Virus record (IMG/VR): IMGVR_UViG_3300020576_002828
Coordinates: 3,017-67,016 of that record
Strand: one strand, 5' to 3'
Origin: a virus
Taxonomy: Duplodnaviria > Caudoviricetes
DNA length: 64,000 nt
Shown here: positions 5,157 through 16,745 of the stretch, piece after piece
How the letters are laid out: each line of letters begins with the position of its first letter
Numbering within the stretch: position 1 is the stretch's first letter
Program-made: the position numbers and the translations under genes
Notes under the pieces: generated by a model
What the model was told of the DNA's origin: nothing
Databases searched by the model: none
The model's input: the letters and a program-made list of their open reading frames with translations, nothing else

Positions 5157-5411
5157 TTAGTCAGCCACAACCGAATTCGACTTCGGCTTGTTCGTGCTGC
5201 CGACCGGACGGCCACGGCCACGCTTACCCGCTTCGATCATGAACTTGGTTGACTTGGCACTCGGACGGCCACGCGGTGTGGTGATGGTGATCAAATCATC
5301 GGGAATGTTGCGCAGCGTGGCACGAACTTCCTTGAGCTTCGCCAATTCCGTTTCCTTCGTCGCGATGGCGGAATCAAGCGTATTGCGCACGTTCTGGACA
5401 GATGCAGACAT
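5157..5411 (-). CDS. coiled-coil + AT-hook DNA-binding protein (paralog 1)
   Basis: PRGRP and RGRGRPVGSTNKPK motifs, N-terminal heptad helix. Confidence 0.8.
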   Translation of the reverse strand: MSASVQNVRNTLDSAIATKETELAKLKEVRATLRNIPDDLITITTPRGRPSAKSTKFMIEAGKRGRGRPVGSTNKPKSNSVVAD

Positions 5412-5704: not shown

Positions 5705-5869
5705 ATGCGAACTCAGCATAAGATCAAGTTGGGCACCACATCACCCACCGGATATACCCGTTTGTTCAATAGTATGTATACCCGATATCACGTGTTATCC
5801 CGTATGGTATTCTGGCGGTTGGATATCCTGTATCGTCGCATACTCCATACCGACTTCATGGTCAAATGA
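5705..5869 (+). CDS. MRxQ micro-protein (MRTQ, 54 aa)
   Basis: hand-translated; first gene after promoter. Confidence 0.8.
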   Translation: MRTQHKIKLGTTSPTGYTRLFNSMYTRYHVLSRMVFWRLDILYRRILHTDFMVK

Positions 5870-6045
5870 GATACCAACGGCAGCATACCTTCGCCTACTT
5901 TGAGCACCCGTTTGATATAGTCGCGTCCAAACCCATGCTGATGAATTTCTGGCAGTTCAACGTAGTGATTAACGCCACCTTTTATGATCTGTTAGAGGCC
6001 ATGCAGTACAATAGCGTCCAACATTACTGGGTAGTCGGTCCATGA
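5866..6045 (+). CDS. MRxQ micro-protein (MRYQ, 59 aa)
   Basis: ATGA overlap. Confidence 0.8.
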   Translation: MRYQRQHTFAYFEHPFDIVASKPMLMNFWQFNVVINATFYDLLEAMQYNSVQHYWVVGP

Positions 6046-6227
6046 GATACCAAGAGAATATCACGTTACCCCCCAGTAGCACCATAGTACAGGCCATTAT
6101 GTGGTATTATAGTAATGGTAAACGGTATATGTATGATCTGTACGTCGGTCCACAAACCACTCTACATATAGCGATATTCATTACCTTTGTAAGTAAGGCA
6201 TACCTCCGGCCCTATAGCGGATCATAG
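6042..6227 (+). CDS. MRxQ micro-protein (MRYQ, 61 aa)
   Basis: ATGA overlap. Confidence 0.8.
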   Translation: MRYQENITLPPSSTIVQAIMWYYSNGKRYMYDLYVGPQTTLHIAIFITFVSKAYLRPYSGS

Positions 6228-6421
6228 TAGTAGGCAATACCCATAGTAGTCGATTTCGCATAGTAGATATCGCCTATATCGCATAGTGGCCGATCATAGT
6301 AGCCAATATATGCATAGTAGGGGATCATAGTAGTCGTTCTTGCCATAGTAGACCGATCATAGTAGCTTTACCATAGGCTATCTGTCATAGTGGCAACAAC
6401 ATAACACCCTTTTCATAGTGG
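6223..6421. repeat. CATAGT(A/G)G short-repeat tract, 11 copies
   Basis: copies at 6223, 6242, 6259, 6282, 6295, 6313, 6326, 6344, 6358, 6386, 6414. Confidence 0.9.
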
Positions 6422-6435
6422 GCGGATCATAGGCC

Positions 6436-6621
6436 ATGCGTAGTCAAGTAAACATAGAAGACGATATCATTACTACTCAGTATATTCTTCGTAGTCGCAT
6501 CATGAAGAATAGATTCTGTAACGCGATACGAATTGATTTGTTGCATACACTTAACGGTTTGGATATCAGCCTTGAAGATATCCTTGATACCATAAGCGAA
6601 GAACATAGGCACCATGCGTAG
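6436..6621 (+). CDS. MRxQ micro-protein (MRSQ, 61 aa)
   Basis: ends HA*, 8-nt overlap with next. Confidence 0.8.
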   Translation: MRSQVNIEDDIITTQYILRSRIMKNRFCNAIRIDLLHTLNGLDISLEDILDTISEEHRHHA

Positions 6622-6781
6622 TCAAGAGATCATAGCGATGCGATATACCGTAGAGCCTACCATAACACGGGCATGTCAAGATAGATCGCGTTTTCTATTT
6701 ATACATACCCCGTGGATAGATGATCAAAATACACTACATAGGATGGCACGCGATCTTGTATGGATTGTATATGGCCTATAG
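6614..6781 (+). CDS. MRxQ micro-protein (MRSQ, 55 aa)
   Basis: paralog of 6812-6982. Confidence 0.8.
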   Translation: MRSQEIIAMRYTVEPTITRACQDRSRFLFIHTPWIDDQNTLHRMARDLVWIVYGL

Positions 6782-6811
6782 TGGCATCTTCATAGTGGAG
6801 GCATCATAGCC

Positions 6812-6982
6812 ATGCGTAGTCAGGTTAGCATAGCGATCTACCCATACACAGGGATGAAACTATCAGGACTGTGTATGGGTAGATCGCCTTTTTTATTTAT
6901 GCATATCCCATGGATAGATCCTGATGATAGTCTATATTGGGTAGCACGAGGTCTAGAATGGGATATAGAGATGTCGTCATAG
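6812..6982 (+). CDS. MRxQ micro-protein (MRSQ, 56 aa)
   Basis: GGAGG RBS; paralog of 6614-6781. Confidence 0.8.
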   Translation: MRSQVSIAIYPYTGMKLSGLCMGRSPFLFMHIPWIDPDDSLYWVARGLEWDIEMSS

Positions 6983-7069
6983 TGTCATCTTCATAGCCAT
7001 TTTTACCGTAGTTGGAAGCCCATAGTGGCAACATCATAGCGCCATCTTCATAGTGAGGGCATCATACCC

Positions 7070-7264
7070 ATGCGGCAACAACACGATATTGGCTACCCAA
7101 CATGTTTTACGCAACATATTTGGAATCTGGCGTCTAAACATCCAGATTTCCATGGGTCAGCCTTCCAGAAATTATACAATCAACGACACATTAATGATCT
7201 GTTTGACCGTATAAACATCCCCATCAACGTCATCCATACTATTGATGATGCGATCTCCCTTTAA
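7070..7264 (+). CDS. MRxQ micro-protein (MRQQ, 64 aa)
   Basis: GAGG RBS. Confidence 0.8.
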   Translation: MRQQHDIGYPTCFTQHIWNLASKHPDFHGSAFQKLYNQRHINDLFDRINIPINVIHTIDDAISL

Positions 7265-7358
7265 GGATGGGGATGGTGAGGCATGGTCGCAAGTAACAAT
7301 CCAAAGAAGATCACACATAATACAATAGGCATACCCATACTCCATAAAAAGGGAATGC

Positions 7359-7544
7359 CTATAAATAGTATTTTTTACTCATAATAACACGGGAAATACC
7401 CACATGCATCTCCCACATGATATTAAACCGTACAGTGGGGCGATGCTGTCGTATGGTCCGTCGTGTGATCAACTTAATACTCTTATACAGCATATCTTCG
7501 AAAAGGTCACCAATAGCGAACGGATATGTGATCTGTTTACGCAT
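7359..7544 (-). CDS. MRxQ micro-protein (MRKQ, 61 aa)
   Basis: ATGCGTAA overlap. Confidence 0.8.
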   Translation of the reverse strand: MRKQITYPFAIGDLFEDMLYKSIKLITRRTIRQHRPTVRFNIMWEMHVGISRVIMSKKYYL

Positions 7545-7704
7545 GAGAGTATGGAATACCGGTAACGAGTCGCAACATCATCAATGCATCCAGCGTATCT
7601 GACCATAAGACTCGCTTTTTATCTGCCTCTGAAATCGAATAATATATCACGTTCTCATATCCATTCCCAACTCCGATCTTCTTACTGACATATTGTTTAC
7701 GCAT
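7537..7704 (-). CDS. MRxQ micro-protein (MRKQ, 55 aa)
   Basis: ATGCGTAA overlap. Confidence 0.8.
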   Translation of the reverse strand: MRKQYVSKKIGVGNGYENVIYYSISEADKKRVLWSDTLDALMMLRLVTGIPYSHA

Positions 7705-7879
7705 GATAGGGTGTCTCCGAATAGTCACGTCCATATACCGTACGTCGATCTACATGACCGAATACCTTATTTGCTATTATGCGATGAACCGATTGTTGTA
7801 AGACCGTGAGTGAAATGAAAAGACGTCCCTCAACGTCCCCATATATCCCTAAGTCTTTATTATATCGCTGTTTACGCAT
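7697..7879 (-). CDS. MRxQ micro-protein (MRKQ, 60 aa)
   Basis: paralog of 8207-8389. Confidence 0.8.
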   Translation of the reverse strand: MRKQRYNKDLGIYGDVEGRLFISLTVLQQSVHRIIANKVFGHVDRRTVYGRDYSETPYHA

Positions 7880-8036
7880 GAGTAATACACCAGCGGTAGA
7901 TAGTTTCGTTGGCATTCCCACTCATTAAGTTAAACCGCATAAACGGGATAGACAAGACATCCGCTACCTGATGCCAGATTTCATGTTCTTGAGGCGACAT
8001 GAACTGATGCACCATACGGAATCGCTGTTTACGCAT
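7872..8036 (-). CDS. MRxQ micro-protein (MRKQ, 54 aa)
   Basis: ATGCGTAA overlap. Confidence 0.8.
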   Translation of the reverse strand: MRKQRFRMVHQFMSPQEHEIWHQVADVLSIPFMRFNLMSGNANETIYRWCITHA

Positions 8037-8214
8037 GCTGACGTTGAACGAGGTATGCGATAGTATACACGTCGAACATAGTATCACGAAGATACCCAAA
8101 CACACGGTCTACGGCACATAATTGCGCTTTCGGTGTTTGGACATTTACACGATGATAGGTGTCTTTTTCGTATCTGGAGAGGATGCCGAGTTTATGGTAT
8201 GCTTGTTTACGCAT
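8029..8214 (-). CDS. MRxQ micro-protein (MRKQ, 61 aa)
   Basis: ATGCGTAA overlap. Confidence 0.8.
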   Translation of the reverse strand: MRKQAYHKLGILSRYEKDTYHRVNVQTPKAQLCAVDRVFGYLRDTMFDVYTIAYLVQRQHA

Positions 8215-8389
8215 TGAAGACGGCCCGTTCATAGCGTCGTCCATATACTATGTGTTGATCTACGTAGCCGAATACGAAATTGGCCATCGTCCGTACATTC
8301 GATGGATTAAATGGGGTGAGCGAACCGAAAATACGATGTTCCATGTCTCCATATATCCCCATTGTGGTGTTCTTATGTTGTTTACGCAT
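8207..8389 (-). CDS. MRxQ micro-protein (MRKQ, 60 aa)
   Basis: paralog of 7697-7879. Confidence 0.8.
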   Translation of the reverse strand: MRKQHKNTTMGIYGDMEHRIFGSLTPFNPSNVRTMANFVFGYVDQHIVYGRRYERAVFNA

Positions 8390-8564
8390 GTTTCCCCATC
8401 GCATGATAGTAATCTCGTCCGTCTGTGGTGGTGAATGCAATTTTTGAATGTACTTCATCTGCCCACTTCCGTAGTTTGCGTTGCGGGTGTGCATGGATTG
8501 ATATAAAAATAGACGCTTCCTTGGGTGAATATATGCCAAATTTGACGAAATACTGTTTCTGCAT
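8382..8564 (-). CDS. MRxQ micro-protein (MQKQ, 60 aa)
   Basis: first gene of cluster; shares GIY and GRxY with neighbours. Confidence 0.8.
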   Translation of the reverse strand: MQKQYFVKFGIYSPKEASIFISIHAHPQRKLRKWADEVHSKIAFTTTDGRDYYHAMGKHA

Positions 8565-8626
8565 ATAGGGGGAGGGGTATCCGCGTGTGGTCTATCTGAG
8601 TGTGACAAAATATTCGGGAAATATAA

Positions 8627-8686
8627 TCGGTCAAAAAGTCCACCGATTCGGTCAAAAAGTCCACCGATTCGGTCAAAAAGTCCACC
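8627..8686. repeat. 21-bp tandem repeat TCGGTCAAAAAGTCCACCGAT x ~2.9
   Basis: exact copies 8627, 8648, 8669 (partial); further TCGGTCAAAA near 8715. Confidence 0.95.
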
Positions 8687-8733
8687 TAAAAACCCCTATT
8701 TTCTGGTATACATCGGTCAAAATGACTGACCTA

Positions 8734-8952
8734 TCAAGTTAGCGTGACACGATGTGGGAGGAAGGAGTCAACATGCGCTCGCACAACACGCGTCACTTCC
8801 ATATACAAGGTATCAGAAAAGACCCCTTGGATCGGGTAATTGCACACGAGGGTGGTACTATCTACGAACACCACATTCACGGCATGGTGGCATCGATGGG
8901 TTTTCTCAAAGGCGTCCATGATACCAAGAAGATGTTGTCGTTGTTTTCTCAT
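8734..8952 (-). CDS. MRxQ micro-protein (MRKQ, 72 aa)
   Basis: ATGA overlap; paralog of 9077-9295. Confidence 0.8.
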   Translation of the reverse strand: MRKQRQHLLGIMDAFEKTHRCHHAVNVVFVDSTTLVCNYPIQGVFSDTLYMEVTRVVRAHVDSFLPHRVTLT

Positions 8953-9080
8953 GAGTGACGTATATACCGATGTACTGCCGCAAAGATTCGAAAGGATTGA
9001 TACAACGTCCACCAGAAAGTATATCCTCTAGGTACTATATACTCAATGGCGTAATACAACACAGGAGTTTGTTTTCTCAT
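8949..9080 (-). CDS. MRxQ micro-protein (MRKQ, 43 aa)
   Basis: ATGA overlaps at both ends. Confidence 0.75.
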   Translation of the reverse strand: MRKQTPVLYYAIEYIVPRGYTFWWTLYQSFRIFAAVHRYIRHS

Positions 9081-9295
9081 GGAAGACCCCCACGCAGTAC
9101 GCCCACGAGGTAGCTACGCATCCCTCGAATCACCCCGGCATATAACTCATCATAAAACGTCATCGGAATAGGGCGTGTACACCGAAGTTGAAAGGTCGCG
9201 ACATTAGAATATGCAACATTCACGCTGTGCCGAAGCCGATGCTGCCATTCCATGTATTCCATAAAGCCCATCTGATGTGCGGATTGTTTTCTCAT
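9077..9295 (-). CDS. MRxQ micro-protein (MRKQ, 72 aa)
   Basis: paralog of 8734-8952. Confidence 0.8.
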   Translation of the reverse strand: MRKQSAHQMGFMEYMEWQHRLRHSVNVAYSNVATFQLRCTRPIPMTFYDELYAGVIRGMRSYLVGVLRGGLP

Positions 9296-9414
9296 GACCG
9301 GAGGGTGGTATGGAGTGCGAGTTGGAGTATAAGACAAATATACTCCAAATGGTTCCGTGTACAGAAGAACGGTGTCGGCAATAATGGGATATGGCGGATG
9401 GTCTGGTAGGTCAT
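9292..9414 (-). CDS. MRxQ-family micro-protein (MTYQ, 40 aa)
   Basis: ATGA overlaps at both ends. Confidence 0.7.
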   Translation of the reverse strand: MTYQTIRHIPLLPTPFFCTRNHLEYICLILQLALHTTLRS

Positions 9415-9587
9415 GGTAGTACTAATCCCTTCCACAGCGCATGTTGCAGGGTAGGAAAGAAATATGGACCAAGTCGCCAACTCCGAGATAGCCGGTCCCA
9501 GAGCTTCCGATGCCATGAAGTAGACGTAATCTCATCACCAGACAGGAAGAACACCACATACCGAGGGTGATACTTCTGTTTTCTCAT
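9411..9587 (-). CDS. MRxQ micro-protein (MRKQ, 58 aa)
   Basis: ATGA overlaps. Confidence 0.8.
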   Translation of the reverse strand: MRKQKYHPRYVVFFLSGDEITSTSWHRKLWDRLSRSWRLGPYFFPTLQHALWKGLVLP

Positions 9588-9748
9588 GAGCGGATCACCC
9601 CGAACAGCCGGTGATTTTCTGAAAAGAGCAAGAAGGTGGGATGGGTATAATGTAACCTATACCATAGATGGGTCAACCCATTTGGTGTGAGTGTGACCGC
9701 ACGATGAAAGCGATAAGGATGATGGATGGCGAGGGTTTGGTGTCTCAT
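9584..9748 (-). CDS. MRxQ micro-protein (MRHQTLAI, 54 aa)
   Basis: ATGA overlaps. Confidence 0.8.
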   Translation of the reverse strand: MRHQTLAIHHPYRFHRAVTLTPNGLTHLWYRLHYTHPTFLLFSENHRLFGVIRS

Positions 9749-9909
9749 GAAAAAATATCGTAGATGGCCCACCGCAGATCGGTTATATAGGTATCACTCT
9801 GTTGCAATACACTAGAAAAACAGATCTTATTCCAGACATTGCGGTGAAACTGCGTCGGGGAGATGATCGCAAATGTACTATGACGGATGGCAAGGGTTTG
9901 GTGTCTCAT
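9745..9909 (-). CDS. MRxQ micro-protein (MRHQTLAI, 54 aa)
   Basis: ATGA overlaps. Confidence 0.8.
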   Translation of the reverse strand: MRHQTLAIRHSTFAIISPTQFHRNVWNKICFSSVLQQSDTYITDLRWAIYDIFS

Positions 9910-10070
9910 GAGCCTATAGGTCGCTGCATCCCATACATGACAGTCCGATGGGTACCGAACCATAATTGATAAAAGATCTTATCCCAGATCAGACGATGAT
10001 ATGACGTAGGGGTGATCTGAGCACAATCTGTTAAGGTACGACGACGGATAGTAAGGGTTTGCCGTCTCAT
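9906..10070 (-). CDS. MRxQ micro-protein (MRRQTLTI, 54 aa)
   Basis: ATGA overlap downstream. Confidence 0.8.
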   Translation of the reverse strand: MRRQTLTIRRRTLTDCAQITPTSYHRLIWDKIFYQLWFGTHRTVMYGMQRPIGS

Positions 10071-10178
10071 GATAAAAGAGGGGTGGTGATCCGAGTAATC
10101 AGCCGCCAGAGTTCCCATTTTTGCATGGTTGCATCTGACCGGTTCCACTTCTGATAAAAGAACCGTTTACGATCTCAT
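10067..10178 (-). pseudogene. broken array unit (ATG AGA TCG TAA at junction; orphan open frame)
   Basis: junction ATG followed by TAA at the Gln4 position; frame of the upstream gene stays open past its TGA to the next ATGA junction. Confidence 0.55.
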
Positions 10179-10336
10179 TTGGGGAAGACCGTCCAATAAA
10201 AATCGACAAAGATCCGAAACTGAGGAACTTTCAGTTGGAACGCGTATCGGACGTATGGGTTATCGTCGGGGAGTATCGGAAGGTATGGAGATATCATACA
10301 CCGTCTAATCCATGGATTTTGGGTTTGTCGTCTCAT
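10175..10336 (-). CDS. MRxQ micro-protein (MRRQ, 53 aa)
   Basis: ATGA overlap. Confidence 0.75.
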   Translation of the reverse strand: MRRQTQNPWIRRCMISPYLPILPDDNPYVRYAFQLKVPQFRIFVDFYWTVFPK

Positions 10337-10485
10337 AGGACAAAGACATAGTTATGGACGCTCCATCGAAACATAACGATCTCTGTAAAGAAACGCAAAT
10401 ACGCCGGATAGTATGCAGACCACACGGCTGGAAACTTGGTGGTGGTAGGTAGGGACCGGTCGAAACAGATGCGTTGCTGTCTCAT
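10333..10485 (-). CDS. MRxQ micro-protein (MRQQ, 50 aa)
   Basis: ATGA overlaps. Confidence 0.8.
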   Translation of the reverse strand: MRQQRICFDRSLPTTTKFPAVWSAYYPAYLRFFTEIVMFRWSVHNYVFVL

Positions 10486-10646
10486 GTGAAGAACAACGTA
10501 TGTGTGATACCGTCACGAGCCATCACCGTAATCGTCATAAGGCGTCTATATATTGCGAATCGACGTTGATGATGTTGCACCAACTGAGAGAGGGTTTGGT
10601 TCAGGTGGGTATACATCAAATATCGACGATTGGTTTGCTGTCTCAT
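10482..10646 (-). CDS. MRxQ micro-protein (MRQQ, 54 aa)
   Basis: ATGA overlaps. Confidence 0.8.
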   Translation of the reverse strand: MRQQTNRRYLMYTHLNQTLSQLVQHHQRRFAIYRRLMTITVMARDGITHTLFFT

Positions 10647-10810
10647 CGGTTGTGTAGATCGACAATATGACTCCACAATATCTCAAACCGTAACACCGCA
10701 AAAAATCTCCATAGCAGGTTATTGGTGGTATACCGGTAAAATGCGGAGTTTTCTGGTATGTCGGCGATGAGATGTTGCCGACGACTGATGGCAAGCGTTT
10801 GGTGTCTCAT
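10643..10810 (-). CDS. MRxQ micro-protein (MRHQTLAI, 55 aa)
   Basis: ATGA overlaps. Confidence 0.8.
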   Translation of the reverse strand: MRHQTLAISRRQHLIADIPENSAFYRYTTNNLLWRFFAVLRFEILWSHIVDLHNR

Positions 10811-10959
10811 GAGAAGTGACGAACTTGAATGATCCACCACAAGATATTCCGAAGCCCACTGAATTGCCCGATGATATTGGGGGTAGTGAGATTGAACCAC
10901 CAATAAAACTCGTTGGGGTGGTGTCGGGCGTTAAGAATATTGAAACGTTGATGTCTCAT
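10807..10959 (-). CDS. MRxQ micro-protein (MRHQ, 50 aa)
   Basis: ATGA overlaps. Confidence 0.8.
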   Translation of the reverse strand: MRHQRFNILNARHHPNEFYWWFNLTTPNIIGQFSGLRNILWWIIQVRHFS

Positions 10960-11120
10960 CGGAATGTACTCTTAGCAACGAACTGACCAGACTCTTTGAC
11001 ATACCATATGAGAAGTTTAACCCGAAAGAGGGCATGGCATAATGTCTGGTACATATACCACTGAGGGGTAGACGCGGTGTTACAGTAGCCGACTTCAATC
11101 CGAAGAGTCTGCTGTCTCAT
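10956..11120 (-). CDS. MRxQ micro-protein (MRQQ, 54 aa)
   Basis: ATGA overlaps. Confidence 0.8.
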   Translation of the reverse strand: MRQQTLRIEVGYCNTASTPQWYMYQTLCHALFRVKLLIWYVKESGQFVAKSTFR

Positions 11121-11269
11121 GGTCGTCGGATAACGCGTCGGAGGGTGACCCGCATTCGCCACTGTTGCATGATGCCGGGATGATACCAATCCCCGATCAC
11201 ATCATAGAACGGTATCCAGACGATGCCGGTGAGAATCGGTTTGAGGGTGTAAAGCTGTTGTAGACGCAT
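11117..11269 (-). CDS. MRxQ micro-protein (MRLQ, 50 aa)
   Basis: start lies inside upstream ORF whose junction stop is lost. Confidence 0.75.
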   Translation of the reverse strand: MRLQQLYTLKPILTGIVWIPFYDVIGDWYHPGIMQQWRMRVTLRRVIRRP

Positions 11270-11423
11270 TAGTAATACTAACCCACCCCGCATCCCATCG
11301 CAAGGCACCCATGAGTTGACCGATGGGAGTTGTGTATACGATTCGTGCGTAATTAACAATATGTTCTAATATACCATCGGTTTCGAAATGCGTCCGAATT
11401 GGACATCGATGTTGGTGTCTCAT
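11202..11423 (-). CDS. MRxQ micro-protein (MRHQ, 73 aa, C-terminally extended)
   Basis: reads through junction ...TNA-S. Confidence 0.75.
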   Translation of the reverse strand: MRHQHRCPIRTHFETDGILEHIVNYARIVYTTPIGQLMGALRWDAGWVSITNASTTALHPQTDSHRHRLDTVL

Positions 11424-11593
11424 GAAAATAGTTCGACAAACATACTTCCACAGATATCATTAATCTCGTCTGGGCGGAATGCGTTATAAATGTGACTGCG
11501 TATCTCGGAGGGGACCGACAGCCAAATCGCATCCCAGTTGGCATACATCGGTTTATGGCGAAGCGCGGTATATAGAGAGCGTTGCTGTCTCAT
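11420..11593 (-). CDS. MRxQ micro-protein (MRQQ, 57 aa)
   Basis: ATGA overlaps. Confidence 0.8.
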   Translation of the reverse strand: MRQQRSLYTALRHKPMYANWDAIWLSVPSEIRSHIYNAFRPDEINDICGSMFVELFS

Positions 11594-11778
11594 GGGCGGC
11601 GTACTATAGTATCTGTGATGGCGCGAGAGACATCAACTCGCACAACGGACTTCACACTTTTGAGTGCCAACAGCGGATTGGTGATGGTATATACGTCAGA
11701 GCGCCAACCGATGGTGGTCTTCCGGTGTATGCTCACCCAGTTAGGACGGTATACCTGCACATAATGTTGGTGTCTCAT
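11590..11778 (-). CDS. MRxQ micro-protein (MRHQ, 62 aa)
   Basis: ATGA overlaps. Confidence 0.8.
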   Translation of the reverse strand: MRHQHYVQVYRPNWVSIHRKTTIGWRSDVYTITNPLLALKSVKSVVRVDVSRAITDTIVRRP

Positions 11779-11954
11779 AGTTCGATCCATATACGCATCG
11801 CAGCGCCCATAGAATGTATTGAGATACGTTTAAACGCAAACAGTGGTTCTAGTATGACGTACATATCATATCGTATTGAACTATGGGTGGCACATCGAAT
11901 GCAATCCCATATTGATTCGGTTGTGTATACGCTAATTCGACGTTGGTGTCTCAT
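11775..11954 (-). CDS. MRxQ micro-protein (MRHQ, 59 aa)
   Basis: ATGA overlaps. Confidence 0.8.
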   Translation of the reverse strand: MRHQRRISVYTTESIWDCIRCATHSSIRYDMYVILEPLFAFKRISIHSMGAAMRIWIEL

Positions 11955-12112
11955 CGATGCACACTCTGCCATAGTGCTGCCGTGACCCCTACTTCCACAA
12001 GATCATCCGTCGTACGATAGATGGCTACGCGCACTTCCAGTTCACTATAGGCTTTTATCTGTCGCCATAATGAAGGAGATGCACCCACTGAACTGATCGA
12101 TTGGCGTCTCAT
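11951..12112 (-). CDS. MRxQ micro-protein (MRRQ, 53 aa)
   Basis: ATGA overlaps. Confidence 0.8.
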   Translation of the reverse strand: MRRQSISSVGASPSLWRQIKAYSELEVRVAIYRTTDDLVEVGVTAALWQSVHR

Positions 12113-12258
12113 CGGAAAATACGCTCCCATGAAATATTATCGTGGGATAAATCGGGTATGCGGATGATGGGCTGACGCATAATGACCTTCCAGTATCGAA
12201 TGCGAAGATGCACTAGATAATACTGTCGTACGGTGCGAATACACGATTGATGTCTCAT
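12109..12258 (-). CDS. MRxQ micro-protein (MRHQ, 49 aa)
   Basis: ATGA overlaps. Confidence 0.8.
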   Translation of the reverse strand: MRHQSCIRTVRQYYLVHLRIRYWKVIMRQPIIRIPDLSHDNISWERIFR

Positions 12259-12431
12259 GTGGACGGGCGATGAGTATAGGTCTGTAACGTAAAGATGATG
12301 GTGATAATCGATCCACATGTGCGTTGAACGCCAACGGCGATGCGGTGGGCGACATATGTATCGACAGGAATCATCTCACGACAGTGTAATTCTGTCCAGA
12401 GGATGGTGCGGTTGACGGGTTGGCGTCTCAT
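12255..12431 (-). CDS. MRxQ micro-protein (MRRQ, 58 aa)
   Basis: ATGA overlaps. Confidence 0.8.
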   Translation of the reverse strand: MRRQPVNRTILWTELHCREMIPVDTYVAHRIAVGVQRTCGSIITIIFTLQTYTHRPST

Positions 12432-12619
12432 TTAGACCACCACCGGTATAGGGACGTGAGCTTCCCACGGAGCGTATTGATGTGTATCTGGATCGGATGC
12501 TGCACACCATAGTATGCACGGTTACGTAATCGGTAAGCAACCCGACGAGACACCGGCATCATACTATCGCGGTAAATGTTGATGAAGATGTCTTCCCAGA
12601 CGTTGTGTTGTTTGCGCAT
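12428..12619 (-). CDS. MRxQ micro-protein (MRKQ, 63 aa)
   Basis: 28-nt gap upstream, ATGA overlap downstream. Confidence 0.8.
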   Translation of the reverse strand: MRKQHNVWEDIFINIYRDSMMPVSRRVAYRLRNRAYYGVQHPIQIHINTLRGKLTSLYRWWSK

Positions 12620-12647
12620 CCCTGAAACCTAACCCGTACCCGATGAA

Positions 12648-12842
12648 TCACAAGATGGGAATCGTGATCCGGTGTCTAATCTCGTTGGTGGGTGGGAGGC
12701 GAGTGTGAAAATAACGAGTAATCTTCCGGCGATATACAACTAGTGGATGATTCCATATGGTATACGGAAAATCCACACCAGCATACACTCTACCCCGCAC
12801 CCTACCAGAAACCCGTTCAGACAGATTCTGTTGTTTAGTCAT
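12648..12842 (-). CDS. MRxQ-family micro-protein (MTKQ, 64 aa)
   Basis: ATGACTAA overlap. Confidence 0.75.
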   Translation of the reverse strand: MTKQQNLSERVSGRVRGRVYAGVDFPYTIWNHPLVVYRRKITRYFHTRLPPTNEIRHRITIPIL

Positions 12843-13017
12843 ATGACCCAAAGTGAGCGATCCAGTCAGGTGTTGGATACCGTGAAATGGAAACAATGAA
12901 TACTGCTTTCCACGGATAATTCCACGCGAGACTATATATGTCAGCGTCTCTATTGTATATACGTGCCCGCATCTGATCTTTTATATAACTGATGGGGATA
13001 TTCGTCTGGTTACGCAT
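12835..13017 (-). CDS. MRxQ micro-protein (MRNQ, 60 aa)
   Basis: ATGCGTAA overlap. Confidence 0.8.
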   Translation of the reverse strand: MRNQTNIPISYIKDQMRARIYNRDADIYSLAWNYPWKAVFIVSISRYPTPDWIAHFGSYD

Positions 13018-13189
13018 AATAACGGTACATGAGTTGATAATAACCTCGCACGCGTGTCAACATCAGCGTGATAGGACGTGTCTTGGCATCGACGCGATGA
13101 TCAATAGCTCTGATAAATGGTACCCGACTATCCTTGGTAAACAACGGAATAGCTGGTGTGATGTTACTGATGGCGGTTTGAACGCGCAT
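13010..13189 (-). CDS. MRxQ micro-protein (MRVQ, 59 aa)
   Basis: start inside upstream ORF whose junction stop is lost. Confidence 0.75.
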   Translation of the reverse strand: MRVQTAISNITPAIPLFTKDSRVPFIRAIDHRVDAKTRPITLMLTRVRGYYQLMYRYYA

Positions 13190-13325
13190 AGTCTTCAACG
13201 AGATATCGGAAAATCCAGTACCGATGGGAAAACAGGTTGTTTACCAATGGCTGAGGTACACGGTATTGCACTATTGAAAACAACCGCCGAGTGCTAATAC
13301 CAGACACATACTGTTGGTTACGCAT
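13164..13325 (-). CDS. MRxQ micro-protein (MRNQ, 53 aa)
   Basis: reads through junction ...DYA-R. Confidence 0.75.
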   Translation of the reverse strand: MRNQQYVSGISTRRLFSIVQYRVPQPLVNNLFSHRYWIFRYLVEDYARSNRHQ

Positions 13326-13515
13326 AAAACTTGGCCATCACGTCGATTTTAATGTCCATCAACGATACCACGAAGCGACCGAGTGGCAGCTTTATCTTTA
13401 GTTGTTCCACACCAGCCAAGAATATCGTCACGTCGCGTGGGAATCTGGAATCGGTGATGGAATAGAATGATGGCCGCATCGTTCCTACTGATCGACAGAG
13501 GGCCTGTTTACACAT
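13318..13515 (-). CDS. MRxQ-family micro-protein (MCKQ, 65 aa)
   Basis: ATGTGTAA overlap. Confidence 0.75.
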   Translation of the reverse strand: MCKQALCRSVGTMRPSFYSITDSRFPRDVTIFLAGVEQLKIKLPLGRFVVSLMDIKIDVMAKFYA

Positions 13516-13714
13516 CCGGATCACCCATCCAACTCCAAAAATGAACCCACAGAGGGCGTAGAACCGTATTCCATGTATCATCCCAAATCGGTTCGTCCAC
13601 ATCGGCACTGATTTTACACCATATCAGTTCAGTCGTCTGACTATATGCCCGATCTTGAATAGCGAGAAGGAAACGCGTCGACTGATTAAATTTCCGGAGT
13701 CGTTGGTTACGCAC
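13508..13714 (-). CDS. MRxQ micro-protein (GTG start, RNQ, 68 aa)
   Basis: GTGCGTAA overlap. Confidence 0.75.
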   Translation of the reverse strand: MRNQRLRKFNQSTRFLLAIQDRAYSQTTELIWCKISADVDEPIWDDTWNTVLRPLWVHFWSWMGDPDV

Positions 13715-13913
13715 GAGTAGATATGGGGATGGACCGACAGTATGAAATTAAATCGGCGTCGAAAATATTACTGACGTATAACTGCAGAGAACGATTGGCC
13801 GGGATGCCGAGGCCAGCGATATACCCGATCAAATATGGTGGGGTGATCCATCGCGGCGAAATACCGCATACTACAGTGTTGCGAGGCCGAAACGCGGTTG
13901 TCTGGGTGCGCAT
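13707..13913 (-). CDS. MRxQ micro-protein (MRTQ, 68 aa)
   Basis: first gene after leftward promoter. Confidence 0.8.
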   Translation of the reverse strand: MRTQTTAFRPRNTVVCGISPRWITPPYLIGYIAGLGIPANRSLQLYVSNIFDADLISYCRSIPISTRA

Positions 13914-13933
13914 GGGATGATGGATAGGTGTCC

Positions 13934-13965
13934 TTGACAATACTCCAATACTTCGTAGATTGCAA
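13934..13965. promoter_or_regulatory. overlapping divergent promoters: TTGACA-N16-TAGATT (+) and TTGCAA-N17-TATTGT (-)
   Basis: + hexamers 13934-39 and 13956-61; - hexamers 13965-60 and 13942-37. Confidence 0.65.
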
Positions 13966-14007
13966 GAGTGGACCAGTAGGTGCATTCACCTCTTTCTTTT
14001 TCATACC

Positions 14008-14586
14008 ATGGATACGATCAACGAACTACTCTCTACCGTGGATAAGCAGATTGCCCAAGGCACTGCTGAACTGGCGATACTGAAAACGGCCAAACGCCAG
14101 TTGGACGCCATTCCATCCGATGGACCCGTCCGTGATACCCCGCCCAAGAAACGTGCGGGTCGACCCAAGGGATCGAAGAATCTGACCCCGGCTGAACGTG
14201 TGAATAAGAAAGCGGCCAAGCCATCATCCACGGGGCGTCCAAAGGGTCGACCGAAGGGATCGAAAAATCTGACCCCGGCTGAACGGGAAGCCCGCAAGTT
14301 GGCGAAGAAGGCGGGATCGATGGTGTCAGCCGCTACATCATCGGATGTCGAGTTGGCCGAAGTCAGTGCACCCGTTGAACCGTCGCCCATCATCGATCAG
14401 TCCGCACCGGTAGTAGAATCTGCCGCACCATCCAGCCCATGGTCCCCGCCATCGGATGCCGTGGTTGAAACGCCGTATGCACCGGAAGTGGTCGACGAAG
14501 AAGCCCCGTCTGCCCCTATGTATATGGAACAGCCGACCGCAGGATTCCAGAGCAAGGAAGATCTGTTGAACGCTTCGCAGCAGTAG
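14008..14586 (+). CDS. coiled-coil + AT-hook DNA-binding protein (paralog 2) with Pro/Ala/acidic tail
   Basis: two GRPKGSKNLTPAER repeats plus GRPK; N-terminal helix like 5157-5411. Confidence 0.8.
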   Translation: MDTINELLSTVDKQIAQGTAELAILKTAKRQLDAIPSDGPVRDTPPKKRAGRPKGSKNLTPAERVNKKAAKPSSTGRPKGRPKGSKNLTPAEREARKLAKKAGSMVSAATSSDVELAEVSAPVEPSPIIDQSAPVVESAAPSSPWSPPSDAVVETPYAPEVVDEEAPSAPMYMEQPTAGFQSKEDLLNASQQ

Positions 14587-14599
14587 GGGTCACGTAGAT

Positions 14600-14626
14600 A
14601 TGGGCATGGAGAATAACCGTGCCCAT
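14600..14626 (+). other. hairpin between AT-hook gene and tRNA
   Basis: ATGGGCATGG-N7-CCGTGCCCAT. Confidence 0.5.
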
Positions 14627-14632
14627 TCTATT

Positions 14633-14706
14633 GGTCTGGTAGCTTAGTCGGTTAAAGCGCCTGACTCATAATCAGGGGATCGTGGGTTCAAGTCCCACCC
14701 AGACCA
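14633..14706 (+). tRNA. tRNA-CAU (elongator Met or Ile2), CCA not encoded
   Basis: acceptor GGTCTGG/CCAGACC, anticodon arm CCTGA-CTCATAA-TCAGG, T arm GTGGG-TTCAAGT-CCCAC; G1-C72 excludes initiator. Confidence 0.93.
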
Positions 14707-14709
14707 CTT

Positions 14710-14916
14710 ATGCGCACACAAGAGAATCTCTCATTTAGTGTATCGGTACAACCGAACATCGATATATACCAAGCCTACCGCGTAGCAAGTCGTATTCATC
14801 CGGTCGCAGACGTGGCATATGATACATGCATTTCAACCCGAACAGAAAATAGTAAGCTGTCTCGCTGGACACATGAAGTACGGATAGATCTCAAAGAGGC
14901 GTTGTTCGATGCGTAA
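14710..14916 (+). CDS. MRxQ micro-protein (MRTQ, 68 aa)
   Basis: starts 3 nt after tRNA. Confidence 0.8.
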   Translation: MRTQENLSFSVSVQPNIDIYQAYRVASRIHPVADVAYDTCISTRTENSKLSRWTHEVRIDLKEALFDA

Positions 14917-15094
14917 TCAAAAACTTCAAATATACACCATCGAACTTAGACCCCATAGTATATTGACAGACGCGGTTATGCGTCGTCATCCCGGCTTTTG
15001 GACACGTCTGTATAACCAAGCGCCGATTAAACAGACACCGTGGAAGCATTGGGTGTCGGGTATACCGGGATACGACGGAAGCTTTCATGCGTAA
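14909..15094 (+). CDS. MRxQ micro-protein (MRNQ, 61 aa)
   Basis: ATGCGTAA overlap. Confidence 0.8.
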   Translation: MRNQKLQIYTIELRPHSILTDAVMRRHPGFWTRLYNQAPIKQTPWKHWVSGIPGYDGSFHA

Positions 15095-15263
15095 ACAGAT
15101 CTTACTATCAGACAATATCGACCTAGAACAGCATACACAATTACATCGTACCTTCGGTCGTATCGCATGGCAGCGTGTAGAAAAACATGCCCCATTCCGT
15201 ACACTCAAATGGGCATCAGCCATGATTGTGCCGATACGATTAAAAGTATTTTTTCATGCGTAG
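15087..15263 (+). CDS. MRxQ micro-protein (MRKQ, 58 aa)
   Basis: ATGCGTAA overlap. Confidence 0.8.
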   Translation: MRKQILLSDNIDLEQHTQLHRTFGRIAWQRVEKHAPFRTLKWASAMIVPIRLKVFFHA

Positions 15264-15489
15264 ACAACTCTCACGAATCTATCGTATAGATGTAAAGTTG
15301 CATATAGAGATCATGAATCAATATTACACTCGCGACAAACAACGGTGGGTGTTGGAACGAAGTGTCGTGTATCGTAGTTCTGACATATACGATCATCCAT
15401 CACAGATTGTGATGCATCGTAGTTCTGACATATACGATGCATCACAGATTGTGATGCCAGTATTATTTTATATTCAACGCCATGCGTAA
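15256..15489 (+). CDS. MRxQ micro-protein (MRRQ, 77 aa, internal duplication)
   Basis: ATGCGTAG overlap. Confidence 0.8.
   Translation: MRRQLSRIYRIDVKLHIEIMNQYYTRDKQRWVLERSVVYRSSDIYDHPSQIVMHRSSDIYDASQIVMPVLFYIQRHA
15371..15458 (+). repeat. in-frame ~45-bp tandem duplication
   Basis: ATCGTAGTTCTGACATATACGAT..CATCACAGATTGTGATGC twice. Confidence 0.9.
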
Positions 15490-15679
15490 ACAAGACCTGT
15501 TGAGCAAGGTGTTGGTGAAACAAATAGAATATGACACCCACAATCAGTTATCCTCACGTGCGAGAGTGACAAGGGGATGGTGGTGGAATAGTTATAGCTA
15601 TATATGTCAACCCGAACGTAGGTTGCGTGAAGTAATGGAAGATCTATACGAACGCTTCTTTTTTGACCACGATGCGTGA
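15482..15679 (+). CDS. MRxQ micro-protein (MRKQ, 65 aa)
   Basis: ATGCGTAA overlap. Confidence 0.8.
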   Translation: MRKQDLLSKVLVKQIEYDTHNQLSSRARVTRGWWWNSYSYICQPERRLREVMEDLYERFFFDHDA

Positions 15680-15848
15680 ACAGCGATCCGTTATTCAGCT
15701 TACCCGACTGCTACGAATTCGGTATTATATCCCAACAGTAATGCACTATAAGGGAAGTAAACGGATGTTGCAAAAATATCTACGGGTGGCCGATGTGCTG
15801 CGGAGTTCGAAGTTCTCCATTATAACACACATTATACACGATGTGTAA
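15672..15848 (+). CDS. MRxQ micro-protein (MREQ, 58 aa)
   Basis: ATGCGTGA overlap. Confidence 0.8.
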   Translation: MREQRSVIQLTRLLRIRYYIPTVMHYKGSKRMLQKYLRVADVLRSSKFSIITHIIHDV

Positions 15849-16032
15849 GCAGAGGTCAGTTAAATACCCCGTCGAACACGGAACGCATAATACGTTGATG
15901 ACTGAATATAGTATGCATGATCCAAAACATCGTCTTGAACGTGCGGTGGCGGATCGTATGGAGTATGACGTGCCCGCTGTTAACAACAGTGTGATAGTTA
16001 TGCTCCACTTAGAGGCGTATCCTCTTGCGTGA
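15841..16032 (+). CDS. MRxQ-family micro-protein (MCKQ, 63 aa)
   Basis: ATGTGTAA overlap. Confidence 0.8.
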   Translation: MCKQRSVKYPVEHGTHNTLMTEYSMHDPKHRLERAVADRMEYDVPAVNNSVIVMLHLEAYPLA

Positions 16033-16201
16033 ACAACAGCTACTCACCTATCCCATCGAACACGTTACCCATAGAACGTTGTGTAATATCTATTATACAC
16101 GTGATCCAAAAGCGTTGATAGAATCGTATATACTGACGTACATGGATAACGGGGGAGATTTGCGTTCCCTTGCAGCGATAGCCTTTGATATGGTGAAGTG
16201 A
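16025..16201 (+). CDS. MRxQ micro-protein (TTG start, REQ, 58 aa)
   Basis: TTGCGTGA overlap; homologous to both neighbours. Confidence 0.75.
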   Translation: MREQQLLTYPIEHVTHRTLCNIYYTRDPKALIESYILTYMDNGGDLRSLAAIAFDMVK

Positions 16202-16374
16202 TGCGTAAACAAATACTACTTACACATCCCGTCGTATACAAAACGCACCATATCTTGTATACGGCATATACCAAATGTGATCCGGAATACAAGTTGCGCA
16301 TCTATATGATGACGGATCGAATATTTACAATCGGCAGTGCGATTCATTCGTTTACGAATTTAATCCATGCGTAA
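16201..16374 (+). CDS. MRxQ micro-protein (MRKQ, 57 aa)
   Basis: TGATG overlap. Confidence 0.8.
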   Translation: MRKQILLTHPVVYKTHHILYTAYTKCDPEYKLRIYMMTDRIFTIGSAIHSFTNLIHA

Positions 16375-16552
16375 CCAACACGTTATAACACAAGGGGTGG
16401 ATATCACTCTGCATAACAAAGGGTTTGATGCATTTTGTACTAAATATGAAAACGCATTTATTCTCTTACACCGTTTATACGATCACGACATATATCACTT
16501 GCGAGATACAACCATTGAAGTAGAAGAATTCATATACGACCTCTATGCATAA
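16367..16552 (+). CDS. MRxQ micro-protein (MRNQ, 61 aa)
   Basis: ATGCGTAA overlap. Confidence 0.8.
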   Translation: MRNQHVITQGVDITLHNKGFDAFCTKYENAFILLHRLYDHDIYHLRDTTIEVEEFIYDLYA

Positions 16553-16745
16553 ACAAACATCTCTACAACGTGACGTGGTACTCATGACACATATGAAGCT
16601 ATATGGAAATCATCAAATCTATATGACTCCTGATATGTGGTCATACCTCAAAACTGTGGTCATATCACGTCAACCGGCGCATGCTCTGTTAGGACGGAGT
16701 GAGGTAAAAACACACATATCTGCGCAAGCTCCGTCGCCCATGTAA
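16545..16745 (+). CDS. MRxQ-family micro-protein (MHKQ, 66 aa)
   Basis: ATGCATAA overlap. Confidence 0.75.
   Translation: MHKQTSLQRDVVLMTHMKLYGNHQIYMTPDMWSYLKTVVISRQPAHALLGRSEVKTHISAQAPSPM

Follow-up and report, generated by a model that had tools for sequence, protein, structure and literature searches.

The commonest distances between neighboring genes in 1,695 species are -4, -1, and -8 nucleotides (nt), and the window from -8 to +6 nt is treated as diagnostic of termination-reinitiation, whereas spacers of ca. 20 to 38 nt in native pairs nearly abolish coupling (Huber 2023, PMC10666635). Almost all -4 pairs tested were coupled, with a dependence on the Shine-Dalgarno (SD) motif that ranged from none to complete, and in Bacteroidetes, SD motifs are used for neither mode of initiation (Huber 2019, PMC6728339). 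For the coat-lysis overlap of the RNA phage fr, a single gene pair with an overlap of 34 nt, scanning or backward reinitiation is reported (Adhin and van Duin 1990, as given in PMC10666635). Here, we describe an array of 55 mini-genes in a tailed phage (Caudoviricetes), IMG/VR virus record IMGVR_UViG_3300020576_002828, in which the stop codon of most genes lies within the start of the next one. The window analyzed comprises 64,000 nt, bases 3017 to 67016 of the 67,016-bp record, and all positions refer to it. Dense sets of small genes have been described before in the hyperplastic regions of T4-type phages, which hold many small nonessential open reading frames (ORFs) and promoter(early)-stem-loop (PeSL) cassettes (Arbiol et al. 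2010, PMC2839356).

An array of mini-genes joined by short overlaps

The array extends from 5705 to 16745 in three strand runs, both strands read joint to joint: run A (5705 to 7264, plus strand, 7 genes), run B (13913 to 7359, minus strand, 37 genes), and run C (14710 to 16745, plus strand, 11 genes). The genes have 40 to 77 codons (median, 59) and start with ATG in 53 cases and with GTG and TTG in one case each. Their products have in common the N terminus Met-Arg-x-Gln (Met1 in 55/55, Arg2 in 49/55, and Gln4 in 55/55), encoded by a 12-nt start module, ATG-(AGA or CGT)-NNN-CAR. In 52 of the 55 mini-genes, the annotated frame fits the codon usage of the large genes better than either shifted frame does, a check that scored 131/131 on fragments of large genes. 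Because codon usage is frame specific and pairs of paralogues can be detected, we consider the mini-genes to be real genes. Seventeen pairs were found by BLASTP at an E value of <0.01, nearly all between near neighbors, and the array is thus a tandemly duplicated family of paralogous mini-genes.

Tight overlaps account for 44 of the 49 junctions of nonfirst genes, compared with 17 of ca. 50 among the large genes of the phage (Fisher P = 8e-9), and all 44 fall within the distance range of termination-reinitiation (co-directional, ca. -8 to +6 nt). Twenty-two of them are ATGA overlaps of -4 (at 5866 and 6042 and from 12431 to 8952), 21 are overlaps of -8 of the ATGCGTAA/AG/GA type (ATG-NNT-AA/AG/GA, nearly always ATGCGT; 6614, 13714 to 12842, 8389 to 7544, and 14909 to 16545), and one, at 16201, is a -1 TGATG. 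The census further includes two long read-through overlaps, of 26 nt at 13189 and 68 nt at 11269, and six gaps of 28 to 208 nt. The ATGA style is found genome-wide, with 14 of ca. 50 junctions among the large genes. In the -8 type, the geometry forces residue 3 of the next protein to be K, N, S, R, or E, and the upstream protein to end in x-Ala (HA, NA, YA, DA, RA, or LA), except that a TGT or ACT at codon 2 gives DV or YD instead.

Much of this organization had been anticipated in an earlier reading of the sequence without database searches (here, the sequence-only reading), all of whose coordinates were correct. It had described two junction types arranged in blocks, which is what we found, the 8-nt type at 13714 to 12842 and 8389 to 7544 and also at 14909 to 16545. 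The ATGA type, said to run from 12431 to 8952, does so through 20 junctions, interrupted by the gene at 11269 (MRLQ) and by a broken unit at 10178 to 10067. The residues given for the 8-nt type (HA, YA, NA, or DA upstream and K, N, S, R, or E at position 3) hold, with RA, LA, DV, and YD to be added. The array does occupy the span that had been flagged (7359 to 16745), but it begins outside it, at 5705.

The arginine codon depends on position

The way in which Arg2 is encoded varies along the array. AGA makes up 11% of the arginine codons in the large genes and 6% of those inside the mini-genes, and it is nevertheless codon 2 in 22 of the 55 mini-genes, coinciding with the ATGA joints except at 9414, where the codon is ACC. 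CGT is codon 2 in 21 mini-genes, mostly at -8 joints, where its T opens the stop codon of the neighbor. Genes that abut their neighbor carry either AGA or CGT followed by a codon 3 beginning with A or G. In the block leaders, at 5705, 7070, 8564, 12619, 13913, and 14710, codon 2 is CGA, CGG, CAG, CGC, CGC, and CGC, respectively, and none of these six genes contains an embedded stop. Overall, 44 of the 46 abutting genes contain such a stop, compared with only 3 of the 9 genes located behind a gap (P = 7e-5).

Homologous genes are found on both sides of this divide. Gene 8214 (-8 joint) has homologues at 8952 and 9295 (-4 joints), and 12842 has one at 12619. Since homologues occur across junction types, the type follows position and not descent alone, and a mini-gene adopts the joint of its block. 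Such a choice of arginine codon by position shows selection for a stop inside the next start, beyond mere inheritance of the overlap.

Initiation signals

In most phyla, the first gene of a coupled pair typically carries an SD motif near its 3' end; no such motif was found at the joints, and it is missing genome-wide. Energies of the duplex with the anti-SD averaged -2.45 at mini-gene starts, -1.89 at the starts of large genes, and -2.08 at random sites, and an SD core preceded 6 of 55 mini-genes and 9 of 53 large genes, compared with 5.7% of random sites. The sequence-only reading had noted that most internal starts lack an SD; this is so, but the free-energy scan shows that the lack extends over the whole genome and therefore cannot mark the internal starts as special. 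The same start module is present in the six leading genes, behind SD-free leaders rich in C and A, and on these grounds the module may support de novo initiation.

The start regions are also less structured than their surroundings, with a folding energy of -6.1 kcal/mol in 50-nt windows centered on the starts, versus -7.7 kcal/mol in the rest of the array (P = 1e-4). Over the 15 nt upstream of mini-gene starts, the frequency of competing ATG, GTG, and TTG triplets is reduced to roughly half. Weak structure and few competing starts are hallmarks of accessible initiation sites, and the mini-gene starts would appear to be of this kind. In the 20 nt upstream of large-gene starts, the 4-mers with the strongest enrichment are AACA and AAAC (13 and 12 of 53, with ca. 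3.8 expected), and A/C-rich words (AAACAA and CACCAA) are also found just downstream of the mini-gene AUG. The AACA and AAAC words may be an SD-independent enhancer, with a significance that is marginal after correction for multiple testing.

Terminator-like and promoter-like sites within the array were not more frequent than expected from shuffled sequences. A 169-nt gap with repeats (8565 to 8733) and the gaps filled with the octamer CATAGTRG probably split the runs.

Relatives of the mini-genes

An exhaustive profile search of 1.84 billion representative proteins with the subfamily formed by 7879, 8389, and 8564, together with a word-based search of 5.8 billion proteins, retrieved three sequences from other metagenomes, P0007 (JGI), P0014 (ENA), and P0008 (ENA), which are 40 to 47% identical to gene 7879. 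The two full-length relatives have MRKQ at the N terminus, and YA is the C-terminal dipeptide of all three; the final alanine is invariant in the five-sequence alignment. Given that this alanine corresponds to the GCG that arises when ATG-CG is read with a shift of one base, diverged relatives appear to have kept the -8 joint, judging by the protein termini. The 47-kb JGI contig that encodes P0007 also encodes P0003, an 83% identical relative of a 196-amino-acid protein that neighbors the array.

Searches of IMG/VR found no relatives of this 196-amino-acid neighbor or of the AT-hook neighbor, and pattern scans of the same database for two or three tandem joints yielded chance matches only, in repeats of unrelated genes. 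A scan of metagenomes with the 196-amino-acid protein gave only relatives of 28 to 29% identity, without arrays. Public entries exist for two of the mini-genes (P0001 and P0005), with starts placed 23 and 12 codons too early, inside the upstream overlap. The two database versions are thus 23 and 12 residues too long, a warning for gene callers, which would systematically mis-set starts in arrays of this type.

The search for the host was uninformative: RmlB had only matches of 22 to 27% identity in unrelated bacteria, and the -7 promoter motif of Bacteroidetes, tested for the same purpose, was not enriched in the phage.

Organization of the blocks

Run B contains most of the array. It opens with block B1 (12648 to 13913, minus strand, 7 genes), whose leader at 13913 (ATGCGCACC) lacks an embedded stop and is followed by 8-nt junctions at 13714 (with the GTG start), 13515, 13325, 13017, and 12842. 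The exception in B1 is a read-through junction (13164 to 13189, minus strand), where the start ATGCGCGTT (MRVQ) has no embedded stop and the upstream gene, which reaches the joint with ..DYA, extends for another 6 codons, generating the 26-nt overlap. A nonoverlapping spacer of 28 nt (12620 to 12647, minus strand) separates B1 from the leader of block B2 at 12619 (ATGCGCAAA), which has neither an embedded stop nor an SD.

Block B2 (8734 to 12619, minus strand) comprises 23 genes with 20 ATGA junctions, of which 19 use AGA as codon 2, the remaining one being the ACC at 9414. It is divided into uninterrupted runs of 8, 7, and 8 genes. One interruption is the second read-through junction (11202 to 11269, minus strand), at the start ATGCGTCTA (MRLQ), where the upstream gene passes through ..TNA and extends for another 21 codons, so that 68 nt overlap. 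The other is the broken unit (10067 to 10178, minus strand), whose start module ATGAGATCGTAA reads Met-Arg-Ser-stop and whose remainder is open in the frame of the upstream gene up to the TGA in the following ATGA joint, at 10070. All eight genes from 10070 to the end of B2 are intact despite the broken unit before them. Four genes have a common 32-nt 5' end that encodes MRHQTLAI (9719 to 9750, 9880 to 9911, 10041 to 10072, and 10781 to 10812), 78 to 94% identical, followed by bodies that are only ca. 35% identical, which suggests either gene conversion of 5' ends or a longer N-terminal tag of this subgroup.

The two read-throughs had been taken in the sequence-only reading for junctions that were once normal. 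Both were recovered as described, ..TNA at 11269 and ..DYA at 13189, and the frame and the typical length up to the joint (52 and 47 codons) agree with that idea. The terminal NA and YA residues are forced: they result from any reading of ATG-CG in that frame and so are not independent evidence of a lost stop. Moreover, to get from a TAA joint to the present sequence, gene 11269 needs two base changes and gene 13189 three or four, which counts against simple stop loss. Loss of a stop at these two joints is plausible but unproven.

Between B2 and B3 lies the intergenic gap of 169 nt (8565 to 8733, minus strand), with three 21-nt direct repeats at 8627 to 8689. On the minus strand, these are arranged head to tail, each containing TTGACC, and are followed by a sigma-70-like pair of hexamers, TTGACC-16-TATTTT. 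The gap is probably an internal promoter or operator ahead of block B3. This block (7359 to 8564, minus strand, 7 genes) has a leader without an embedded stop at 8564 (ATGCAGAAA, MQKQ), after which there are six ATGCGTAAACAR junctions of the -8 type, with upstream C termini HA or NA. Thus, run B is interrupted by the 28-nt spacer, the 169-nt gap, the broken unit (104 nt), and the two long overlaps, leaving uninterrupted tight runs of 4, 3, 8, 7, 8, and 7 genes.

Run C (14710 to 16745, plus strand) is, with its 11 genes, the longest uninterrupted run. Its leader at 14710 (ATGCGCACA) lacks an embedded stop, and the remaining joints are nine of the -8 type (TAA, TAG, and TGA variants, with the TTG start at 16025) and the -1 TGATG at 16201. 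Only 2 nt ahead of its first ATG is the 3' end of a tRNA with anticodon CAU (14633 to 14707, plus strand), the only match of an Rfam search. Processing of this tRNA would leave the run C mRNA nearly leaderless. The tRNA, elongator-like or Ile2-like, has G:C as pair 1:72; this pair and an anticodon stem without three G-C pairs rule out a phage-encoded initiator tRNA.

Run A (5705 to 7264, plus strand) is more loosely arranged, with uninterrupted tight runs of 3, 2, 1, and 1 among its 7 MRxQ genes. Starts 5866 and 6042 are of the ATGA type, and 6614 is of the 8-nt type with TAG. CATAGTRG repeats fill the three gaps of the run (208, 30, and 87 nt), and 13 copies of the octamer lie on the same strand between 6223 and 7028 (plus strand; 20 in the whole window, where 3.1 would be expected). 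The related CATAG directly precedes the starts at 6436, 6614, 6812, and 7070. This repeat array is putatively iteron- or operator-like.

How the array may be translated

We lean toward a reading in which the joints are selected stop-in-start overlaps that would provide facultative coupling, alongside independent initiation, in a duplicated family of mini-genes. The array would be a locally duplicated, fast-diverging family of mini-protein genes whose start module holds the stop of the previous gene out of frame, as A-TGA in the -4 type and as ATGCG-TAA/TAG/TGA in the -8 type. The copied unit would span from one start to the next, so that each new copy supplies the stop of its upstream neighbor, and junction types would come in blocks because the copied unit brings this stop along. 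Selection would hold Arg2 at the protein level and adjust its codon by position, AGA or CGT to terminate the neighbor and CGC, CGA, or CGG in leaders. A ribosome terminating on the embedded stop sits, we infer, on the next AUG and would probably restart there without an SD, while the A/C-rich, weakly structured module would also permit fresh initiation and probably recruits ribosomes directly. Coupling would then boost and equalize expression within runs of 3 to 11 genes instead of being all or nothing. Because the genes after the 68-nt and 104-nt interruptions are intact and keep the motif, hand-over is presumably not their sole route of expression, as selection on them would otherwise have been relaxed; their integrity is only suggestive of independence.

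Several points weigh against this proposal. Both coupling and de novo initiation, and with them coupling efficiency and transcript structure, we infer from the nucleotide sequence. The conserved A/C-rich module could by itself account for the weak structure and the depletion of competing start codons. The age of the broken unit and of the read-throughs cannot be established, which makes the intact genes downstream weak evidence for independence, and the conservation of the joint in relatives was read from protein termini only. The blocks of junction types match local groups of paralogues, and large genes also often have ATGA junctions (14 of ca. 50), as one would expect if the overlaps were due to compaction and ancestry only, that is, inherited, space saving, and preventing protein tails, with the genes translated independently and coupling negligible; starts that look competent for de novo initiation agree with this too. 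We consider this explanation unlikely, since homologues sit in blocks of differing junction type and the type must have been refitted after movement, the exact overlap is kept in units that vary from 40 to 77 codons, and -4 overlaps were coupled in all native pairs tested but one (PMC6728339).

At the other extreme, serial termination-reinitiation could be obligate, with ribosomes recruited only by the leading gene of the transcript and the rest silenced by one nonsense mutation, as the sequence-only reading had proposed for a coupled chain of up to 30 genes. Coupling as such is a reasonable assumption given the geometry (-4, -8, and -1 match the reinitiation window) and the position-dependent arginine codon, but the stronger claims of that proposal are not supported, and the longest uninterrupted tight run is the 11 genes of run C. 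The 44 of 49 junctions within -8 to -1, the internal starts without an SD, the use of the rare AGA codon to make a stop, and the C-terminal alanine kept by relatives all agree with an obligate chain. However, the leading genes also lack an SD and must initiate de novo with the same module, the start regions are weakly structured and not occluded, and reinitiation at less than full efficiency, compounded over 8 to 11 steps, would leave the distal genes almost unexpressed. Furthermore, genes 11269 and 13189 start 68 and 26 nt before the stop of their neighbor and 10070 starts 104 nt after one, and they and the genes that follow them are intact, though distances of ca. 20 to 38 nt nearly abolish reinitiation (PMC10666635). 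Taken together, this makes an obligate chain quite unlikely, and silencing of everything downstream by a single nonsense mutation is not what the intact genes suggest. Less probable again is that the start module serves chiefly as a recombination joint for the swapping or duplication of mini-gene cassettes, similar to PeSL shuffling (documented in PMC2839356), the overlap being secondary. The DNA common to the whole family is indeed the module only, plus ca. 20 nt more in subgroups, 32 nt of 94% identity can precede bodies of ca. 35% identity, and junction type follows position; but homologous exchange would hardly be expected over as little as 12 nt, one codon of which, in the middle, is variable, the two arginine codons differ between blocks, and the joints come without a promoter or stem-loop. 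That the units are not separate genes at all, but a noncoding repeat array or a single product frameshifted at each joint, can practically be dismissed: unit length is regular (ca. 160 to 180 nt) and the joint is conserved, but each open frame runs exactly from joint to joint, 52 of 55 units show frame-specific codon usage, synonymous codons preserve Arg2 and Gln4, and Rfam matches only the tRNA. A frameshifted polyprotein in particular was ruled out, there being no consistent slippery site ahead of the joints.

A further function of the N terminus we put forward as a speculation with little probability behind it. The 12-nt ATG-(AGA/CGT)-NNN-CAR could be a portable plug that ends the previous gene, restarts the ribosome without a ribosome-binding site, and adds a Met-Arg-x-Gln address tag that some factor of the phage or its host would read, for instance to direct modification, packaging, or turnover. 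If this were true, the phage could grow and reshuffle a library of basic mini-proteins at expression ratios fixed by serial ribosome hand-over.

Products and genomic context

The mini-gene products are basic (median isoelectric point, 9.8), with a high content of Arg, His, Tyr, and Trp. They matched no family among PHROGs, at the Pfam scale, or in the Atlas; a PHROGs search with ten of the mini-proteins gave no credible match, and the ESM Atlas gave no hit. An AlphaFold prediction from the five-sequence alignment reached a predicted local distance difference test (pLDDT) value of 55, and the ratios of nonsynonymous to synonymous substitutions (dN/dS) between paralogues were saturated (0.2 to 0.9) and uninformative.

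Among the large genes of the window, there is an ATPase with a match to PHROG 1250 and a weak match to clamp loaders, ca. 31% identical to homologues in T4-type phages, for which reason we call the phage distantly T4 related. Others encode ThyX, NAMPT, a GIY-YIG/SegE-like endonuclease, and a long glycan synthesis island. Against the DNA of cultured phages (50,697 records), megablast found no relative, and blastn matched the tRNA only.

Two AT-hook-like paralogues with RGRP/KGRP motifs flank parts of the array (5157 to 5411, minus strand, and 14008 to 14586, plus strand; 32% identity, E = 4e-6), each divergent from an MRxQ run and each preceded by an identical pair of hexamers, TTGACA-16-TAGATT (5511 to 5484 and 13934 to 13961). 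In addition, a 57-codon ORF that starts with MEYG and not MRxQ (7172 to 7345, minus strand) lies 13 nt beyond the last gene of run B, in the zone where runs A and B converge, which also contains a TAGGCAT/ATGCCTA inverted repeat.

Comparison with known systems

Among described systems, the array is closest to termination-reinitiation pairs (PMC6728339 and PMC10666635), with which it has in common the -4 ATGA, -1 TGATG, and -8 ATGNNTGA-type overlaps, the co-directional arrangement, and a stop on or inside the next start. Its lack of SD motifs resembles the SD-free pattern of Bacteroidetes (PMC6728339). However, those systems are mostly pairs or short operons, often of subunits of a complex, while the 44 joints here connect members of a set of 55 orphan mini-genes, the overlap forms part of a conserved four-residue N-terminal tag with an arginine codon switched by position, and coupling is predicted. 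The 26- and 68-nt read-through joints would require, as in the coat-lysis pair of phage fr, that ribosomes move backward after termination to an AUG they have already passed; compared with what is reported for that pair in PMC10666635, the long overlaps of the array are exceptions within a chain of tight ones.

With the hyperplastic early regions of T4-type phages, the array shares the density of small, fast-evolving orphan genes (PMC2839356), and the phage itself is distantly T4 related. In contrast to the PeSL regions, the array genes are fused by their overlaps, belong to one family, and have a common N terminus. The cassettes of promoter and stem-loop are missing: in place of a strong early promoter and a terminator stem-loop between ORFs, we found direct overlaps, and neither element is enriched at the joints. 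T4 internal proteins carry a capsid-targeting sequence, a short N-terminal motif of ca. ten residues on otherwise dissimilar small proteins. The array is similar in having a common N-terminal motif and different in its length, four residues.

If coupling is confirmed, the array would offer a natural test bed for how long a chain of SD-free ribosome hand-over can be and how its efficiency decays per step, with 44 joints of three kinds in one genome and its own natural "mutants," namely, two putative lost stops and one broken unit. In it, a protein constraint (Met-Arg-x-Gln) and an RNA constraint (the stop of the neighbor) are reconciled by synonymous codon switching. It is a clean natural system for the study of SD-free reinitiation and not a new principle. 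Compared with known systems, the overlap classes and the class of coupling mechanism are already at textbook level, and two features appear to be new: the density, with 44 joints, and an overlap that is fused to a conserved N-terminal tag of four residues, for which two codon dialects are in use.

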